Shown piece by piece: positions 2,950 to 55,043 of a DNA stretch of 64,000 nucleotides (within the stretch, counting starts at the first letter, position 1; every line of letters begins with the position of its first letter). The position numbers and the translations under genes were made by a program. Source of the DNA: Bacteroidota bacterium (GTDB taxonomy: Bacteria > Bacteroidota > Ignavibacteria > Kapaibacteriales > UBA2268); the NCBI GenBank assembly GCA_024278075.1, contig JAJRTW010000155.1, positions 4,191 through 68,190 on the forward strand. The letters are read 5' to 3'. Below the pieces are notes generated by a model, which saw nothing but the letters and a program-made list of their open reading frames with translations, was not told where the DNA came from and did not search any database.

Positions 2950-3987
2950 TTATTTTCCGAACATAGCATCTATATCATCCTGAGAAAACGGCTCTGAATG
3001 ATCGTCATCTTCCGATTCTTCAATTTCAATTCTATCAACTTTATTCTCAATATTCGTTGGTTCGGTATCATTATTATTCGTGTCGGCACTGCTGTTAATT
3101 GCCGCCGTTCCCGAATTGGCTTCGGATTCTTCAGTTTCGATATTTCCATTGAACATCGCATCAATATCCTCAGGCGTTACCGGCTCACGGCCGCTATCGG
3201 CATCTGCACGTCCATCAAAAACTTTGTCTACTTCGGCCTGCCTGGATTCTTTGTTGTCATAGGAGTTAACGGCTTCCGGGTCGAAAGCAATGTCTCTGTG
3301 AAGCCTTGACACGTTAATCTTCTCCGTATCATCTTCCTCCGAAACAATATCGCTAATATCGGTTGATTTAAACGTAGTCATTATCTTCGACAATTTATTG
3401 TGAATCGTTTCAAGCAAATGATTCACAGCAGCAATTTGCTGGGAAGAAATATCCTGAACCTGAAGAGACATCATAATCGAATTAGTATCGTTGCGGACAC
3501 TATCCAATATTTCGTTGGTCTCATTTTTCATTTTAATATATTCTTTATTCGGCTGCGATTTCAAGCCTTTGATAGAATTAGACAGTTGCGGCAGGATTTC
3601 CTGCAGATCGCTTTTCTGCTGAATTGCCTTGTGAATAATTTCAAGCAATTTAATCGGATTTTGCTTAGATTGCTCAACGATTTCGTCCATTCTTGCCATA
3701 TTCGTTGAAATAAGGTCTGCCTTGTAGAACAAACCGTCCACTATATCCATTATTTCGGTTGTTGCATGTTCGGTAGCCTCGGTAACTTTCGAAAGCTGTT
3801 CGGAAGCTCCGGGCATTTTCTTCATGTTGTCTTCAATCGATACGTTTATTTCATCAAGAACGGGATGAATCTCTTTTACAAATAAAAATATCTCTTCAAG
3901 AAATGGAATAACCCTTTGGCCAAGAACAAATAATAATCGTAATTCATCGGCTTTTTGCAACAATTCAGTAATATCTTTATCTTTCAT
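2950..3987 (-). CDS. CheZ-like CheY-P phosphatase candidate with two C-terminal FliM-N-like CheY-docking motifs
   Basis: 345 aa and helical. The motif 'LQVQDISSQQIAAV' matches the CheZ active-site pattern QD-x-x-x-Q (E. coli 'AQDFQDLTGQVI'). The acidic disordered tail has 'PEDIDAMFNG' and a terminal 'SQDDIDAMFGK' resembling FliM 'LSQDEIDALL'. Located inside the che operon. Confidence 0.45.
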   Translation of the reverse strand: MKDKDITELLQKADELRLLFVLGQRVIPFLEEIFLFVKEIHPVLDEINVSIEDNMKKMPGASEQLSKVTEATEHATTEIMDIVDGLFYKADLISTNMARMDEIVEQSKQNPIKLLEIIHKAIQQKSDLQEILPQLSNSIKGLKSQPNKEYIKMKNETNEILDSVRNDTNSIMMSLQVQDISSQQIAAVNHLLETIHNKLSKIMTTFKSTDISDIVSEEDDTEKINVSRLHRDIAFDPEAVNSYDNKESRQAEVDKVFDGRADADSGREPVTPEDIDAMFNGNIETEESEANSGTAAINSSADTNNNDTEPTNIENKVDRIEIEESEDDDHSEPFSQDDIDAMFGK

Positions 3988-4011
3988 AATTTATGCTCCG
4001 GTCAAAGGGAT

Positions 4012-4389
4012 TTATCCTAAATTAGTGGCCTTAAGTACAGCATCGAGCTTTTCTTTCAGTACATGTGGTGTAAATGGCTTAACGACATAATTATTAACTC
4101 TGGCCTTTAAAGCATCAACAATATCCTGCTTCAGGCCTCTTGTTGTCACCATCAGAATCGGCAAATGTTTGTATTTGTCATTGGACCTTATTGATTTAGT
4201 CAATTCCAGCCCGCTCATAATTGGCATATTCCAGTCGGTTATAACAAATTCCACCGTCCCCTTTTCCAATTGTTCCATAGCTTCAAATCCATCACCGGCC
4301 TCGAGCGTATCAGTATAGCCAAAAGTTTTTAAGGCGTTGATAACGATTCTTCTCATCGTAGGCGAGTCATCAACAACTAAAAATTGCAT
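4012..4389 (-). CDS. cheY: Chemotaxis response regulator CheY
   Basis: 125-aa single REC domain with DD...D...T...K residues (VVDDSPTMRR, DWNMP, VTT, KPF). Confidence 0.85.
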   Translation of the reverse strand: MQFLVVDDSPTMRRIVINALKTFGYTDTLEAGDGFEAMEQLEKGTVEFVITDWNMPIMSGLELTKSIRSNDKYKHLPILMVTTRGLKQDIVDALKARVNNYVVKPFTPHVLKEKLDAVLKATNLG

Positions 4390-7435: not shown

Positions 7436-8350
7436 TTACGAAGGTGCCGTTAAATCATTTTCCGCATCGGGATTATTGCCGGCCAGCTTCTTCAAGTCAT
7501 ATATGAATTTTGCCACCTCGGCCGAAATTAATATCATCAGCGAGGAATAATAAATCCATAGCGCTATTGAAACTATTACGGCATAAGTTCCGTAGAACCT
7601 GCCATAGTTACTAATGCTGCCTATATACCAGGCGAAAATGTATCGCGACAGTTCAATCATTAGCAGCGAAGAACCTGTTGCTATCAGCCGGATTGTCCGG
7701 GGAAGCTTTTTGTTCGGAACCGACCTGAAAATGAAATAGAATAACCCGAATGAAGTTAGCAGCGATAATACATTGAACGTTACTTCCGAGAGTATCCAGT
7801 TTACTCTTTCGGGGAAATATTCATTAATAAACGACAATGCAACCGTAATTATTGGAACTGCATAAGAATATAACATAACAAGGACTGTCATAACCAAAGT
7901 CAGCAAGATGTCTTTCAACCGGTAGAAAACAAATATATTAGGCGAATGCAGCCTGAATACCGCATTCAGGCCGGTTCGGAGCGAGCTAATCAATGTGGAT
8001 GAAATCCATAGAAGCACGCCCATGCCAATCCAGCCAAAGAAACTGCTGTTCTTGAGTATCAAATTGACTTCGCCAACCAGGTCTTTAAGGAAACCGGCCG
8101 ACCTGCTGTCGGGTGGCAATAGGTCTATGAGTATTTTCTCAAGCGATGCTGATAAATTTTCGGCACCGAAAACAAGGTTCACCACATAGACTGCCACAAG
8201 AAACATGGGAAGAAGGTATAATAATATATTGAATGCAATTCCGGCGGCGAGCATAAAAAGATGGTGCTGCTCTATGCGTTCGACAATTATTGCCACCGAC
8301 CTGTAGATCTTATATGGCTTGCCGTCTTTTACTAAATACTTCCTGAGCAT
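7436..8350 (-). CDS. YihY/BrkB family inner-membrane protein
   Basis: 304 aa, multi-TM. N-terminal 'AAGIAFNILLYLLPMFL' is typical of YihY/virulence factor BrkB. Confidence 0.65.
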   Translation of the reverse strand: MLRKYLVKDGKPYKIYRSVAIIVERIEQHHLFMLAAGIAFNILLYLLPMFLVAVYVVNLVFGAENLSASLEKILIDLLPPDSRSAGFLKDLVGEVNLILKNSSFFGWIGMGVLLWISSTLISSLRTGLNAVFRLHSPNIFVFYRLKDILLTLVMTVLVMLYSYAVPIITVALSFINEYFPERVNWILSEVTFNVLSLLTSFGLFYFIFRSVPNKKLPRTIRLIATGSSLLMIELSRYIFAWYIGSISNYGRFYGTYAVIVSIALWIYYSSLMILISAEVAKFIYDLKKLAGNNPDAENDLTAPS

Positions 8351-8418: not shown

Positions 8419-8572
8419 CAGAACTATTCAATAGCCACGTGCTTTAGCTCGTGGAAGCCCAAATCCCCGAATTAAAACTCGGAGCTATATATTCCTTCAT
8501 ACTTCAATAGCCATGTGCTTTAGCTCGTGGAAGCCCAAATCCCCGAATTAAAACTCGGGGCTATAAATCTTT
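8419..8572. repeat. Tandem direct repeat, 2 x ~77 bp
   Basis: Units 'ttcaatagcca[ct]gtgctttagctcgtggaagcccaaatccccgaattaaaactcgg[ag]gctata' at ~8428 and ~8505 are ~97% identical. Each has an inverted repeat ccacg...cgtgg. Confidence 0.8.
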
Positions 8573-8605
8573 GCCGTTTATGAAATTATTTATAACTTTA
8601 AAATT

Positions 8606-10297
8606 ATGAAAAAAATATTAAAATATAAACTAACTCTGCTTATTATAATATGTTCTTGCGCCAATCCGCAGCCACCGTCGGGCGGCCCGGCAGATAAAAC
8701 TCCACCGGAAATAGTGGCGTTCGAACCTGCCAGCGGAGTTCTGAACTTCAAAGGCGGTTCGATCATTATCGAATTTAGTAAATATATGAACAAAAGCAAG
8801 GTAAGGGAAAATATTTTTATCTCGCCGTCGGCCAAACTTGATTTCGATTGGAGTGGCAAAGAGCTTGGAATTGAATTTCTTGAAGAACTCAGCCCGGACA
8901 AGACTTATGCCCTGACGCTGGGCACTGGCTACTCGGATTTGAAAGGCAATAAACCCACCGAAGCCTTCACTTTGATTTTTTCGACCGGAAATGTAATTGA
9001 TTCCGGAACCATTAAAGGAAAATTATTCGACGCCACGCCTTCCGGCATATATATCTATGCCTACAAAATCGACAGCATGAACGTTGATACTTTCGACATC
9101 AGGAACAACAAACCGAATTATTGGACGCAGATTGGCACGAATGGCAATTTCCTGATTATGGCTTTGAAGGATGGCACTTATAGGTTAATAGCTATCCGCG
9201 ACCAGTTCAAGGACGAGATTTACTCCGAGGGGGCTGATGCGTTTGGCGCCCCCGTCCGGGATGTTACAGTAATAAATGGCTCCGCACCGGAAGTTAAATT
9301 AAAAATCGGACCGCCGATAGACATTATTAAGCCTCAGTTATACACTGCATATTCAACATCTGACAGGTCAATAGAAGTTTCCTTCAGCGAAGCAATCGAC
9401 CCTTCGTCATTATCGAAGAACTCATTTGTTATAAGTGATTCAGCCGGAAGCCAACTCCGCGCCATAAATTCCCTGTATCCGGATATTGAGAATAAAAGCA
9501 AAATAATAGTTTTCGCTTCCGGGCCGCTGGATACCGCTGTCAAGTGGAAGTTAACAGCCTTGGCCAATGCGGAGAACTGCCCGCGGGACACTATAGGGTT
9601 CTGCATAGACGACACTGCAAATACGGCTTATTTTTTCAGTGACACGTCTATTGATTCTACTCTTCCCTCTGTCATATCATCGCCTTTCCCGGATAGCACT
9701 TATGATTTGCCGATCAATCAACAATTCGAATTTATTTTTAATATGAGCGTAGCCGAAGAGAATTTTAAGGACAGAATCAAATTAATAAAGTCAGCAGATT
9801 CTTCAACGGCCGGCTTTGACATCAATTTTATCAGTGGCAATGATTTTGAATTAATTCCTTAGGAGTTTCTCGAGCCTGACACCTGGTACCGGGTTGAACT
9901 GCGGCTGGACTCACTTGCGGGCGGCAACGGAATGCTGGCAAAGGATTCGTTAATCAACTTGAACTTCCTGACACAGGATCAAAGAAAGTACAGTCAAATA
10001 GGCGGCACCTTGGCGGACTCATCTCTTTGCGACGGCCCTTATTATGTTATACTTAAGGCAAAAAGCGGAAATAAGGCAATCACCGCAAAAGTAGCCGACG
10101 GTGGCAGCTGGGAATTCAAAGCATTACCGGTCGGGATTTATAGTTTCGAAATATTTTGCGATTCCGATGGCAATGGCATCTATAGCTTTGGCAATGCCAG
10201 CCCTTTTGAATTCGGCGAAAGATTTTCCGCAATCGAGCAGGAAATCGAAGTAAAAGCCAGGTGGGAAGTCGAGAACATCAAATTAATCTTTAAATAA
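8606..10297 (+). pseudogene. Ig-like (SbsA-type) domain lipoprotein, interrupted by an in-frame amber codon at 9860-9862
   Basis: ORFs 8606..9862 and 9932..10297 are in the same frame, separated only by a TAG. Translation reads sensibly through it (..NDFELIP*EFLEPDTWYRVELRLD..). Lipoprotein signal 'LLIIICSCANP' and 'PADKTPPEIV' Ig-like N-domain. Confidence 0.5.
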
Positions 10298-10339
10298 TTC
10301 TAATATGAATACAGTAGTGCATCATCTCATAATAAATTA

Positions 10340-10825
10340 ATATTTAACGTTCCGTCAGTTGTTACAACTGACGAATGACGAGAGTTTCTATATTGCCAGT
10401 TGTAACAACTGGCGAAAGCAAAGGTGTAACAAAGCTGGTGGCTTTGATACAAGGGTTAACATTGCAATTGTTTCTGAGATGCCGTATTAGTGTCCGGTTA
10501 AAATGCAGCCAATTTGTGATAATCGAAGTAATAAGCTCCTTTTTGGCCTATATTGTGCTATAGTGGATACAATTTTGAAATTAGCAAAAATAATATCTAA
10601 ACGTGTCATTCCGGACTTATTGAGCCCAGCGAATTCCCGTATTGGGAAGTAATCCCGCTATCGGGAACCCGGAATCCATCTCAATATGGCCACATAGCCC
10701 GCACATACTGGATTCTTCACTACGCCACAAGTGGCTTGCCATAGATGGCTTTGTTCAGAATGACAAGTCATAATATTCAGGTACATATTCTGAGTGTTTC
10801 TCTTTTTTTACCGGACACTACTAAT
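10340..10825. repeat. Composite intergenic repeat element copy E2 (contains inverted copy of the E1 185-bp module)
   Basis: Hairpins 'cagttgttacaactgacg' (10356) and 'ccagttgtaacaactggcg' (10398). A B-start fragment 'tattagtgtccggttaaaatg' is at 10486. The reverse complement of the E1 module spans 10611-10822. Flanked by the 12-bp direct repeat 'ctaatatgaata' at 10301 and 10821. Confidence 0.65.
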
Positions 10826-11695
10826 ATGAATAATATAAATCCGAATACACCCAAATCGAACAAAGATATTATCCTTGAAATTATTGCAACGGGAATTTCA
10901 AGATACTCGGCCAATCTTGAGCTGTGCAAAAAAGCGTTCTCCGAAGAATCCGTGCATGGCCTAAGGGTATCCATCCGGAGGCTAATAACCATTGTTCGTG
11001 TGATAAATAAAATAATCCCGAATGAAAATGTACCATCATTGCTTTCATCTTTTAAATCGCACCTAAAATTGTTCAATCCCCTGCGCGATACGCAAGTGAT
11101 GATGCTAAAGATAGAGGAAATGGCCCAAAGGCATCCGGCACTTGAAGTTTTCGGCTCCGAACTAAAAGAACGCGAAAAAAATTATATATTAGCTCTGAAA
11201 AAGGGAATTCAGCATTTGTCATTTTCCCGGATTCAGCCTGCTCTCGACGAAATGAATGAATCCTTAGGTGCGTCGGTTGTTTCCGGCAGCATTATTTTCG
11301 CCCATATAATTAATTCAATGAATTCGTCTTTCACAAAAGTTATTGAGCTTAATAATATTGCCACAAGCGATAACATGGAATCTTTGCATAAAGTCAGGCT
11401 TGCGTTCAAGAAGTTCCGCTACCGAGCCGAAGCTTTCACAAATATTATCAACTATCCGGAATGCAGGCGAAAGCAGCTTGGGAAATTCCAGGATACACTC
11501 GGGGCAATTCAGGATAATTCCGTACTGATGAAGAATATCGAAGAATTTTCCATTAACAATAATTTGGAAAAGGACTTCTTGCCGGCAATAATTGAATTAC
11601 GTGAGGAAGGGGTACTTTTGGTTAATAATTATTTCAGTAATTCGGATTTTATATTTAATTTTTGGTCATTGCCGCAACCGCCGGCGCTATCTTGA
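10826..11695 (+). CDS. CHAD domain-containing protein
   Basis: Motif 'VHGLRVSIRRLITIVRV' is typical of CHAD. The start was moved to the internal ATG (MNNINP...) because the longer ORF start lies inside the repeat element. Confidence 0.55.
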   Translation: MNNINPNTPKSNKDIILEIIATGISRYSANLELCKKAFSEESVHGLRVSIRRLITIVRVINKIIPNENVPSLLSSFKSHLKLFNPLRDTQVMMLKIEEMAQRHPALEVFGSELKEREKNYILALKKGIQHLSFSRIQPALDEMNESLGASVVSGSIIFAHIINSMNSSFTKVIELNNIATSDNMESLHKVRLAFKKFRYRAEAFTNIINYPECRRKQLGKFQDTLGAIQDNSVLMKNIEEFSINNNLEKDFLPAIIELREEGVLLVNNYFSNSDFIFNFWSLPQPPALS

Positions 11696-15807: not shown

Positions 15808-15984
15808 GTGGATATATTCACAGATTAATAAAAAAAACCTTTTTGATGATTATTCAACAATCAAATTAACAAAAAAGTTACCAAGCCGGAAATAAATCGT
15901 GCGTGCCCGAATGCGGCAGATATATGTTATGGAATAAAATAATTATAGAATAATAATATAGAATAAAATAATGGGATCTTCATT

Positions 15985-16244
15985 GCCAAGTCAGGTGTTA
16001 CACCTGACGTGCTTGAGCTGTCTTGTTTTGTCAGTTGTAACAACTGACGGTACATGGCAGGATGCAAACCTTTCAATCATTTGTAGGGGACGGTTCATAA
16101 CCGTCCCGAAATAATTGTCGTGTTGTTAGGGCAGGTTTGGAACCTGCCCCTACGATTCTTATTCTGTTATTGGCAACTTGCGATAACATAACGTAGTATT
16201 CGAGTATAAATTATGAGCCGCTCTTATTTTAACCGGACACTACT
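15985..16244. repeat. Repeat element copy E3: cluster of four perfect hairpins ending in the shared terminus 'ttttaaccggacactact'
   Basis: Hairpins tcaggtgttacacctga (15991), gtcagttgtaacaactgac (16030), gggacggttcataaccgtccc (16086) and agggcaggtttggaacctgcccct (16128). Flanked by the 18-bp perfect direct repeat 'tgttatggaataaaataa' (15915 and 16245). Confidence 0.65.
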
Positions 16245-16261
16245 GTTATGGAATAAAATAA

Positions 16262-16300
16262 AAATATAAATAAAAAATAAAAAATAAAAAATAAAAAATA
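16262..16300. repeat. Simple sequence repeat (aataaaa)n
   Basis: 'aaataaaaaataaaaaataaaaaataaaaaataaaat'. Confidence 0.8.
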
Positions 16301-16399
16301 AAATAATGGAATATTTTTGAGGAGTGCCGAATTTAACGACGGATGGAGGATGCAATCGTAAAAACAATAGTCATCGAATTATTCAGATGCTTCCTACTG

Positions 16400-45950: not shown

Positions 45951-48900
45951 TTGAGCAACTGGAACCGCAAGTGGCCTCGCAAAGCCGATACAAAACCATC
46001 ATTAATGCGTGTCCTGAAAAGAATTCATAAACATTATATAGGATATGGTGCAGAGGCATTCAAATATAGTTTAGACGAATATATTAGGCTCTACTTGGAT
46101 TATAGGTTCCAGGGAAAGGGAATCAATAACTATAAAGGTGATATCGAATCAAGAGAATATATTGTAATGTATTACGGACTTGATACGCTCCCTGAGCCGT
46201 ATGCTTCATTGGTAAACGATTTTATTGGTCAAAGCAAGAATATATCATCTCCAACAATAAATTCAGGCAAGGACATGACATTAATGGAACAAGCACAGCA
46301 CAACTTCGAGAAAATAACGAAGCTGTATTCATTGGCCAAAGAGAAAGGGAAAATCAAACCTGATATGATCTCCGCTCTTGACAATGGATTTGAGTCTATT
46401 GGTGACTTGATTGGTGTGGTATATGAACCGGTAAATATTATAAACCCAGATAAATTAAAGAAAATCAACTATGCACCCGGCAATACGACAACAATTGAAA
46501 CGCCAAACGAATCCATAAAAGCAAAGTATGTGTTAGTGCCACTCATGGACTTAATAGAATCTAATGATCCGTATTCGTTTAAAAGGAACCCGGATTATCC
46601 TGAATTTTGCCAAACCAGGAATTATGCACAGACGAAAGCCGAACAAAATAAGGTAATTAGCTTTTCCAAAGATTTCAAACCGGAACATCTGATTAATAAT
46701 TCGCCGGACGCCACAACAGGCCCACCAATTATCACAAAAGAAGGGATCGTGCTTGGCGGAAATGGACGGGCAATGATTTTAAAGCGAATTCATCATAAAA
46801 AAGGTTTTGATGAGTATTCTCAATTATTAGAACGGAATTTAGAATCATTCGGATTTAGTCCAGGCTGTGCGGCCCACATGATTCTTGCCCGCATGATTGA
46901 TATTGACTATAAAAAATGTGCCGCATATAGTAATAAACTTAATCAATCGACTATGCAGGAACGGGACGCAGTGACACTCGGTATCGGCTATGCGAAGCAA
47001 ATTAGTGAACAGGATTATACAACACTCGCAAAAATATTTGAGAATTCCGAAGAATCAACTTTTTCGGCCACACTGAATAATGCCGTTTCGCAACGACAAA
47101 TCATTTCCGTACTGGAGAAGTCAGGGCTGATTACTCCACAAAACCGTACTCAATGGATTAGCGAAGGCACCGGCGAACTTTCCAAGCAAGGCCGTGCGAT
47201 ATTAGAATCCGTTCTTATCGGCTATATTATGCCGGATAAGGCATTGATGGAAGCGGCACAGAACTATACAAATAAATTAGTCAAGTCACTGCCATTATTG
47301 ATACAAATTCACAATATGTCCGGCACGTGGAATATAGTGCCGGATATAAAAACGGCTATCCGGGAAGAAGTTAAACGACGGCGTGCAGGTGCGACAAAGG
47401 CGGATTATTTACGGCAGGATGATATGTTCGCAAGTGGCAAATCGGATATTGTGCCGGAGAATGTTCAATTAGTTTGGAAAGCCCTGGACGGTGGGGTATT
47501 GCAATTCCGTGATTTCCTCAAGAAATACATTCGCACGGCAAACAATGAAATGTCCGGCGGCTCGATGTTCGGCGAATCCAAAGTAAAATCAATCGACGTT
47601 CTTCGCAAACACATTAGCAATACAGGACTTGGTGATAATATGTCATTAATGCAACAAGCACAGCAGCAGTTCGAGAAAATAACGAAGCTGTATTCATTGG
47701 CCAAAGAGAAGGGGAAAATCAAGTCTGATATGATCTCCGCTCTTGACAATGGATTTAAGTCTATCGGCGAATTGATTGGTGTGGTGTATGAGCCGGTGGT
47801 AAAGACAAGGACACGGGAGTGGGCTTTGATAATGAGTATTCTGGACACACATGAATTTTGCATGCATAAATCAAATTCTTCACAAAGAGAACGTAAAGAA
47901 TGCAGAGAATTAAACGAGTCCCGACAAAAGGAATTGTTAATACTAACATTGACAAAACCAATTAAGCCCATAATGGATATAACAGATTTTAGTAAAATTG
48001 AGGAAACAGTATATAATATATTATATGCCCGCAGACCTAATACTATAATATCACAGTTAAAGAAATATAGGATAAATCAAAAGCTAACTGATGAAATGAT
48101 TCTTGACGTTACGGCTATATATATGTCCGGTGAAACAAGCCGAAATCAGCCGATATTCCATCGCAAAGTAGATGCTTTAATGAAGCAAAAGAAGAAGAAT
48201 ATTAGACTATGGAATAAGATGAGAGCTTATCTCCCTACTCTTGGTACGACCGATAATACATTATGGGACATAGCATTTAAGGAAAAAGGCGATATAGTAT
48301 CGAGACATGGAGAGGAGATAATCTTTTCACCAACTTATGAAGAACTTATTTATTGGATATATGAATATAGTGATATAAAGCCAAAAGCTGAGACAGTTCC
48401 CAAACCACAGGAAAAGAAAACGGAGACTAAAACAAATAACAACAAATTCCCGTTCCCTGGCGATGCAATAAAAAAGACTGAATTTGATAAATGGTTCGAG
48501 ACTGCCGAAAGGAACTACAAAGCTAAAGATTTAAGTTATTCTGCATTCCAGGAATTGGATGAAATGTTCGCTCCCATAGGTGAAGACGACCAGAAGGCCA
48601 TTGTTCAATATCTGTTCGCCAATGCACCGGACAAACTTAAGAAATTAGTAATGTATGGTAAAAAAGCAGCAACCACTGGTTGGTGGGAAGCTGATAATAT
48701 GAGTAAAAATGCACCTCCGACAAGTGATTTCGACGCAGGAAAAGATATTCCTGCTGAATTCCAAAAACATAGACGAATCAAAATTGTTGACTATGAATTG
48801 AAACCGGACAATGAAAATCTTTGGGGAATTATAGGAACAAGCATCAGTACAGATGTTCACCGCCCCCCAATGAATGGGGCTGAGTTTAATGATAAAGGTG

Positions 48901-53434: not shown

Positions 53435-53500
53435 AACTTTTTTTTGGAATGCAGGCAGGATTTGAACCTGCGTAACGCCGCCCGTTCTGCATTCGAGGGG
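53435..53500 (-). repeat. tRNA 3'-end-like element A (T-arm 'gcaggttcaaatcctgc' + acceptor-like inverted repeat gaatgcag/ctgcattc)
   Basis: Minus strand: gaatgcag-aacgggcggcgttac-GCAGG-TTCAAAT-CCTGC-ctgcattcc. It is too short (~48 nt) to be a tRNA. About 90% identical to the element at 54978-55043. Confidence 0.6.
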
Positions 53501-54977: not shown

Positions 54978-55043
54978 TGAACTCGATTTGGGATGCAGCC
55001 AAGATTTGAACCTGCGTAACGCCGACCGCTCTGCATTCTGTAG
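54978..55043 (-). repeat. tRNA 3'-end-like element B (copy of element A)
   Basis: 'gggatgcagccaagatttgaacctgcgtaacgccgaccgctctgcattc' is about 90% identical to element A, with the same 'gaact' leader. Confidence 0.6.

Follow-up and report, generated by a model that had tools for sequence, protein, structure and literature searches.

Among the short elements derived from insertion sequences (ISs), MIC231 of Bacillus cereus is a mobile insertion cassette, or MITE (miniature inverted-repeat transposable element), of IS4-family origin that descends from IS231, and outward promoters borne by ISs or MITEs, as in Correia elements, are either complete within the element or hybrids that join a -35 in the terminal repeat to a -10 in the flank. 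The activation of resistance genes by ISs has been reviewed (PMC9330008). Within the IS4 family, members of the IS4Sa subgroup have ends of the form CA------T, direct repeats (DRs) of 8-10 bp, a size of 1150-1750 bp and a DDE transposase with YREK (PMC2266710, Table 1). REPINs are doublets of repetitive extragenic palindromes (REPs) that REP-associated tyrosine transposases (RAYTs) mobilize, as defined in PMC3337134 and PMC3116915. Here we describe E2, a 512-bp repeat element at positions 10312-10823 of a 64,000-nt stretch of contig JAJRTW010000155.1 (hereafter the window) from a Bacteroidota bacterium of the class Ignavibacteria, where it lies directly upstream of a gene for a CHAD-domain protein and is related to three further copies, E1, E3 and E4. 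Comparison of its sequence with other genomes leads us to consider it probable that E2 is a MITE of the IS4 family, of an IS4Sa-like subgroup, that has also picked up a REP doublet.

Like MIC231-type elements, E2 and its relatives are short and non-autonomous, keep only the terminal inverted repeats (TIRs) of an IS4-family IS, have a modular interior and a target-site duplication (TSD) of the parent's length, and are presumed to be mobilized in trans. They differ from MIC231 in that the parent is IS4Sa-like, with ends CAGTAGTGTCCGG and a 9-bp TSD, and the host Ignavibacteria/Kapabacteria-like; the cargo consists of non-coding palindromes, including the REP doublet, and one end of the composite is cut to 8 nt of the TIR. 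The doublet itself is like REPINs in being made of two mutually inverted palindromic REPs with a short spacer, and unlike them in that the doublets of the window are never free-standing but always lie within elements that have a TIR, and in that each REP is an almost perfect palindrome.

Structure of E2 and its insertion site

Read from the left, E2 begins with an 8-nt TIR tip (10312-10319, + strand, CAGTAGTG) whose sequence is that of the IS4-type TIR over its initial 8 nt and from which homology with E1 begins. The tip is followed by module A (10320-10484, + strand), which holds the REP doublet, and by module B (10485-10823, - strand), a non-coding, palindrome-rich MITE body of 339 bp. The initial annotation had described module B as an inverted copy of a 185-bp module of E1 at about 90% identity; the inversion holds, but the homology extends over about 312 bp in E1 (573-884) and 339 bp in E2 (10485-10823), with 85.5% identity outside gaps and an indel of 27-28 nt. 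The 19-bp inverted repeats CAGTAGTGTCCGGTTAAAA enclose module B in E1 as well as in E2. The outer right TIR of E2 (10805-10823, - strand) reads TTTTTACCGGACACTACTA on the + strand, with A in place of the terminal G, and the inner TIR (10485-10503, + strand, TATTAGTGTCCGGTTAAAA) carries 2 mismatches at its tip when compared with the TIR consensus from 113 IS ends; this inner TIR had been read as a truncated forward start of module B and is instead the other TIR of that module, which is inverted here. Against an 18-mer of the TIR, the ends of module B have 0-2 mismatches in E2, and in E1 none at the inner and 5 at the outer end. The terminus TAGTGTCCGGTWAA is found 6 times in the window at <=2 mismatches, where 0.55 occurrences are expected. 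The module B end that adjoins ...AAAATGAGAAC... is well kept in E1 and E2 and resembles both the transposase-distal ends of IS copies from Chlorobiaceae and the end of E3, and the tip of the opposite end is damaged in both.

Sequence comparison places a perfect 9-bp duplication, ATATGAATA, directly against both termini of E2. The left copy (10303-10311) holds an orphaned original ATG (10305-10307), 7 nt past the upstream gene's stop codon, and the right copy (10824-10832) provides the CHAD gene with its ATG (10826-10828) and with codons 2-3. These copies lie inside the 12-bp direct repeat noted earlier, CTAATATGAATA, which does occur twice, at 10821-10832 as had been stated and at 10300-10311, one position to the left of the start first given (10301). 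Its meaningful length is 9 bp: the 12-mer is the TSD plus 3 chance bases, and on the right side the additional CTA represents the last bases of E2's own terminus after the change of the terminal G to A. These two are the only occurrences of the 12-mer in the window, where chance would give 0.04, and the right-hand repeat supplies the ATG of the CHAD gene as had been proposed (10826-10828 within 10821-10832).

When positions 10312-10832 are deleted in silico, the stop codon (10295-10297) of the 121-aa gene upstream of E2 comes to lie 7 nt from the CHAD ATG, and thus E2 appears to have been placed between two tightly linked genes with the ATG duplicated by the TSD. The site without E2 is predicted to read AAATAATTCTAATATGAATAATATAAAT. 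Because the TSD brackets both the tip and the far TIR, the whole 512 bp would be the unit that inserted. These observations support the view that the CHAD gene received the insertion at its 5' end recently, a claim for which the initial annotation had relied on a longer open reading frame (ORF) from 10745 that we consider spurious. The 121-aa gene (9932-10297) has no Pfam domain, and in a collection of 5.8 billion proteins only the protein itself was found.

The CHAD gene (10826-11695, + strand) encodes 289 aa with a Pfam CHAD match of 1.6e-23. A database protein (P0001) of 289 aa that is 100% identical to it starts at 10826, and two homologues (P0002 and P0003, 71% and 67% identity) align from the same ATG, so the start lies at 10826 and not at 10745. 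The alternative 316-aa ORF from 10745 reads into E2.

Neither coding nor structured-RNA content was recognized in the elements. They are 274-512 bp long, and their longest ORFs (<=62 aa) are unconserved between copies, with frames broken by 1-nt and 27-28-nt indels. No transposase gene was matched in the window by tblastn with IS transposases, and ARAGORN predicted no tRNA or tmRNA there. Rfam scans of the whole window at the gathering threshold and of 10250-10900 at permissive settings returned only chance miRNA and snoRNA matches, by which a known structured RNA in E2 was ruled out. A 20-mer from the core of module B had no match in JGI metagenomes, and viral contigs gave none to patterns for the hairpin, for the end specific to this lineage or for the E3-type sequence. 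Taken with TIRs of an IS4-family IS and a perfect 9-bp TSD, the lack of a conserved ORF, Rfam match or transposase identifies E2 as a probable MITE, in agreement with the earlier description of the family as MITE-like, non-coding and provided with a shared terminus and TSD-like flanks.

The parent insertion sequence and a proposed mechanism

The TIR 18-mer AGTAGTGTCCGGTWAAAA was scanned once against GTDB genomes, and matches were listed from more than 110 contigs, which is a lower bound, of many phyla and lineages, including Burkholderiales, Chlorobiaceae, Nitrospirota, Desulfobacterota, Bacteroidota and Ignavibacteria. Among the matches listed, the TIR very often lies about 120 nt from a contig end, a signature of a multicopy IS that breaks assemblies. 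Paired inverted TIRs 1.29-1.54 kb apart (1294-1544 bp) enclose an ORF of about 410 aa with DUF4372 and DDE_Tnp_1 domains that scores 263 and 212 bits with NCBIfam NF033592 (IS4 family transposase; cut-off 115), and a homologue of this transposase is present at 31 of the listed IS loci. Exact 9-bp TSDs together with termini CAGTAG...CTACTG were found in at least 8 two-ended elements, namely 7 intact ISs and a 183-bp MITE. As the TIR of E2 matches the ends of this IS and intact copies make 9-bp TSDs, we assign the mobilizer of E2 to an IS4-family DDE transposase.

The parent IS agrees with the description of IS4Sa in its ends (CAGTAGTGT), 9-bp DR, length of 1294-1544 bp and NF033592 score above the cut-off; YREK-like spacing in the transposase, ...YQSRWQIELFFKWIK..., was spotted by eye only. 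The closest named plasmid relatives are ISAbe18-like elements of Acinetobacter plasmids, which have a transposase about 40% identical to that of one of the IS loci (L021), related ends (CACTGCTGTCCCA...) and a TSD of 9-10 bp; unlike the family described here, they have another TIR sequence, and no MITE or REP association was seen for them. A blastn comparison of E1-E4 with 110 IS loci found the TIR alone in common and did not reveal the parent IS of this lineage. A literature search for the TIR string returned unrelated primers only.

MITEs with the same TIRs were also observed in Nitrospirota/Thermodesulfovibrionia, at L027 (~3987-4169), where a 9-bp TSD is present, and at L058 (1760-1945). 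Since these elements of 183-186 bp share the TIRs, the IS group appears to have spawned MITEs independently in other phyla.

A target logo built from the flanks of 113 IS ends is weak and reads AT-N5-AT. As the group logo shows no more than this, ATATG was rejected as a target of the IS in general, and so was a preference of the IS group for start codons: 15 of 104 ends have an outward ATG-initiated ORF within 45 nt, compared with 13% of controls, which is no enrichment.

The steps that we propose for E2 are as follows. A transposase supplied in trans by a full-length copy elsewhere in the genome would bind the element ends, and the excised element would be pasted into a staggered 9-bp cut whose repair produces the 9-bp duplication. 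The 512-bp unit would thereby have entered between the 121-aa gene and the CHAD gene, which lay 7 nt apart, and a cut on ATATGAATA would have doubled the ATG and first two codons, leaving the CHAD start intact. About 0.5 kb of hairpin-rich DNA would now stand between the CHAD gene and the gene that used to adjoin it upstream, and CHAD may be transcribed by read-through or by means of a promoter situated within the element or at its end.

E1 and E2 have an arrangement in common, in which homology runs in the same orientation from the 8-nt TIR tip through the REP doublet into a full TIR and is followed by module B in either orientation. The REP doublet may have inserted into a TIR, with an 8-bp duplication, or been captured through a pseudo-end, and would then travel with the MITE. 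The opposite orientations of module B may have come about by inversion between its inverted repeats, or by module A joining independently to either of two identical ends. Recombination between copies, to which the rearranged modules had first been ascribed, is a possible cause of the orientation of module B; independent insertion or composite formation fits equally well.

Several observations weigh against this account. The left end of E2 keeps only 8 of 19 TIR bases, and a transposase may or may not be able to use such an end; the E2 TSD fits the weak AT-N5-AT preference of the group at the first two positions only. Between E1 and E2, module A is more diverged (75% identity) than module B (85.5%), which argues against a simple shared history of the two modules. 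E1 (429-884) has no clear TSD, no composite 9-bp duplication having been found around it, and a possible TSD of module B only, AATATTTAC versus AATTATTTAC, is too weak to claim. E3 (15972-16245) is without a recognizable left TIR, and its flanks form an imperfect direct repeat of 47-63 nt, not of 9 bp.

Element ends upstream of CHAD genes

In two relatives, represented by contig L111 and by contigs L112/L113, a TIR end also faces the CHAD gene, 9 and 35 nt upstream of the ATG, respectively. The contigs of both relatives break inside the element, which multicopy repeats would be expected to cause. In an alignment anchored on the coding sequence, the three CHAD-upstream ends lie within about 7-10 nt of each other, and the interiors differ, with module B in E2, an E3-like interior in L112 and a third type in L111. 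Because the TSD of E2 is perfect and the interiors differ, this recurrence seems more likely to reflect independent insertions into a hot spot than one ancient insertion. The recurrent placement before CHAD, in the same orientation, could also reflect selection.

An outward promoter in the element was considered at two positions. Within module B of E2, a sigma-70-like match (ATGACA-18-CATATT, 10760-10789, + strand; a consensus match only) reads outward to CHAD and lies in a 31-nt block that is identical in E1, where the site is at 636-607 on the - strand. Hybrid matches span the junction of TIR and flank in E2, L111 and L112, with TTAACC or TTTACC as the -35 hexamer, a spacing of 16 or 17 nt and a -10-like hexamer in the flank. 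Promoter-like matches are no commoner than in shuffled sequences, and this phylum is not known to have promoters of sigma-70-like type. The -10-like hexamers of E2 and L111 overlap the ATG or come after it and could not serve that start. Inspection by eye of the outward ends for Bacteroidetes-type promoter motifs (TTTG or TAnnTTTG) found none. The arrangement is like that of IS- and MITE-borne promoters in that the element end faces the gene from a few to 35 nt before the start codon and offers -35/-10-like hexamers, and unlike it in that the hexamers are consensus matches only and are misplaced for the ATG in E2 and L111. Delivery of a promoter by the element end is offered here as a hypothesis.

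In the element upstream of CHAD in L111, positions 1-26 hold a hairpin that resembles an intrinsic terminator and has a T-run, CCCCTCTCAAGAGGGG AATTTTTTAT, directed towards CHAD and about 70 nt before the gene. Such a hairpin, judged by its sequence, would block read-through from upstream.

These ends raise another explanation, by which the elements would be more than passive MITEs: that the IS4-type end has repeatedly been selected as a portable promoter or 5' leader, or that start sites with ATATG are an orientation-specific hot spot for the transposase of this lineage, and/or that the REPs inserted into the TIR. The evidence for it is the same-facing position of ends before CHAD in three lineages, with CHAD proteins 67-71% identical, and the presence of such an end before a BrkB-like gene of the window: only 2 nt separate the degenerate end of E4 from this - strand gene's start codon (8348-8350), the same spacing as that between E2 and CHAD (ACCGGACATTAATAATATG versus ACCGGACACTACTAATATG). 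A portable element end could uncouple genes from upstream operons, a hot spot at ATATG start sites would preserve the ORF by way of the TSD, and the position of the REP doublet between a duplicate of the 8-nt tip, which contains GTAG, and the full TIR may reflect cross-talk between Y1 and DDE transposases, the Y1 enzyme being a RAYT. We regard this explanation as unlikely.

The REP doublet of module A

The two hairpins that had been assigned to module A of E2 were confirmed. The first palindrome (GTCAGTTGTTACAACTGAC, 10354-10372; hairpin centre 10356-10370) has a central T and the second (GCCAGTTGTAACAACTGGC, 10395-10413; hairpin centre 10397-10411) a central A, the two being mutually inverted and 41 nt apart. 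Six such hairpins are present in the window, where 1 is expected, and they occur only as three doublets, inside E1, E2 and E3; in each doublet the first centre is T and the second A, and the spacing from start to start is 40-42 nt.

The hairpin GTCAGTTGTWACAACTGAC was found at 33 loci in JGI metagenomes, mostly intergenic, with the stem extended through paired flanking positions. Among the REP hairpins there are compensatory stem variants, such as GGTG..CACC versus GTTG..CAAC. The 33 loci are adjoined by other palindrome classes, and the IS4 TIR lies near none of them. Two metagenome contigs of other organisms link the hairpins to RAYT genes. On L137, a 179-aa RAYT (757-1296, - strand), identified by a score of 107 bits with NF047646 (cut-off 80) and by Pfam Y1_Tnp, is accompanied by REPs at 648, 1336 and 1377, and the contig holds an E3-like doublet, GTCAGGTG.../GTCAGTTG..., with a spacing of 41 nt. 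On L141, REPs at 8554, 9184 and 9230 accompany a RAYT (8603-9145, - strand) that is 45% identical to that of L137. No RAYT was found in the window. Because the same hairpins flank RAYT genes on both contigs and occur as inverted pairs with 40-42-nt spacing, module A is a REP doublet, REPIN-like and of another class of repeat than the IS4 MITE.

The link to RAYT genes also lends something to the idea that the whole family is a mosaic of REPs, or of bacterial interspersed mosaic elements (BIMEs), moved at its hairpin ends by an IS200-like tyrosine transposase (RAYT or IS200/IS605), as does the BIME-like abundance of other palindromes in the elements. An IS200/IS605 element had been suggested initially as the mobilizer, and the suggestion has merit insofar as the hairpins flank an IS200-like RAYT in L137 and L141; it does not suit the TIR-bounded element. 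IS200/IS605 elements are recognized by subterminal hairpins and by the lack of TIRs and TSD, whereas module B has 19-bp TIRs and E2 a 9-bp TSD, and Y1 transposases need no TIRs and leave no TSD. The TIR moreover belongs to an IS4-family DDE element, and the REP loci of other organisms that are without it indicate that the two components are separable. That tyrosine transposition accounts for the whole family is therefore very unlikely.

Orientation of module B

It could also be supposed that module B is a phase-variable inverton, that is, a promoter-bearing segment flipped by a site-specific recombinase to switch CHAD and other genes, since it is flanked by 19-bp inverted repeats, is found in both orientations relative to module A, lies directly upstream of a gene and contains the conserved outward promoter-like match. 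The two orientations, however, occur at two separate loci that are 85% identical, with one assembled orientation at each, and the repeats form the ends of a DDE transposon that makes a 9-bp TSD, such as E2 has. No recombinase is present among the annotated genes around E1-E4, and the corresponding segment of E1 is located within a chemotaxis operon, with the next start codon far away. We consider an inverton highly improbable.

We give next to no credence to the suggestion that what precedes CHAD is not mobile but serves the CHAD operon as a conserved cis-regulatory leader or structured RNA: the same kind of end does stand 9-35 nt before CHAD in two relatives whose CHAD proteins are 67-71% identical, and module B folds somewhat better than shuffled sequence (z ~ -3.4), but the interiors are wholly different in the three lineages (one B-type, one E3-type and one of a third type), the same ends recur at loci that are unrelated and, as IS termini, in phyla that are unrelated, the TSD of E2 is perfect and Rfam gives no match.

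Other copies and further repeats in the window

E1 (429-884, + strand) lies between cheA and a downstream response-regulator gene. It consists of the tip (429-436, AAGTACTG), two REP hairpins with centres at 469-483 and 511-525, and a forward-oriented module B (573-884), of which the inner TIR (573-591) is perfect and the outer TIR (866-884) degenerate. The CheA of the window has its best named homologues, at 60-67% identity, on the Ignavibacteria/Kapabacteria side. The spacer between cheA and cheB is 759 nt here, filled by E1 and further REP-like units, versus 85 nt in a relative (L149). The remainder of the spacer between cheA and the response-regulator gene (250-420) is occupied by a further REP-like class (gtcattctgagccc...ggataaact..gcgatgaatc), which is seen again at 3500-3570 of L112, at the contig end.

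E3 (15972-16245, + strand) has a REP doublet, with hairpins at 15992-16006 and 16032-16046, other palindromes of the GTAGGGG...CCCCTAC type over about 180 nt and a perfect right TIR (16227-16245). Its interior shares 78.5% identity, over 121 nt, with the CHAD-upstream element of L112. The repeat that flanks E3 (15925-15971 and 16244-16306, TGTTATGGAATAAAATAA...AATAAAATAATGGRAT) has an (AAAAAT)n expansion in its right copy.

The family had been thought to have three members in the window; a fourth, degenerate copy, E4, extends on the + strand from 8353 to about 8570 and consists of a TIR-like end, TATTAATGTCCGGTTATAGATGAGAGAC, which matches the end of E1 at 20 of 25 positions, followed by two 66-nt palindromic units. 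These tandem units (8427-8568) are 95% identical and contain two hairpins each (ATAGCCACGTG...CGTGG and CCCCGA...TCGGGG). They resemble 'atagcccacgg...ccgtggg' palindromes that lie beside REPs in metagenome loci such as L131.

Two further repeats were observed elsewhere in the window. On the - strand, 53443-53494 and 54987-55038 are tRNA-like 3' halves, 90% identical and 1.5 kb apart, in which a T-arm-like GCAGGTTCAAATCCTGC within a stem GAATGCAG...CTGCATTC is followed by CCA or CCCA; they could be remnants of attachment (att) sites or tRNA-like structures, ARAGORN having called no tRNA in the window. A direct repeat of 158 nt (46275-46432 and 47640-47797) is 91% identical, its copies lying 1365 nt apart.

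Implications

The family is previously undescribed and falls within known classes, and the modular repeat is explained as a fusion of mobile DNA of two known kinds into a chimera of slightly unusual build. For annotation, the start codon of the CHAD gene is fixed, and the longer ORF is shown to be an artefact that the insertion created. The IS4Sa-like group behind the TIR is very widespread and uncatalogued, with a 19-bp end conserved across phyla and MITE derivatives in at least two lineages, and its elements appear to fragment the assemblies of metagenome-assembled genomes of this clade. If the recurrence of element ends before CHAD is selected or site-specific, it would represent a natural case of transposon ends rewiring operons in Ignavibacteria-like bacteria.

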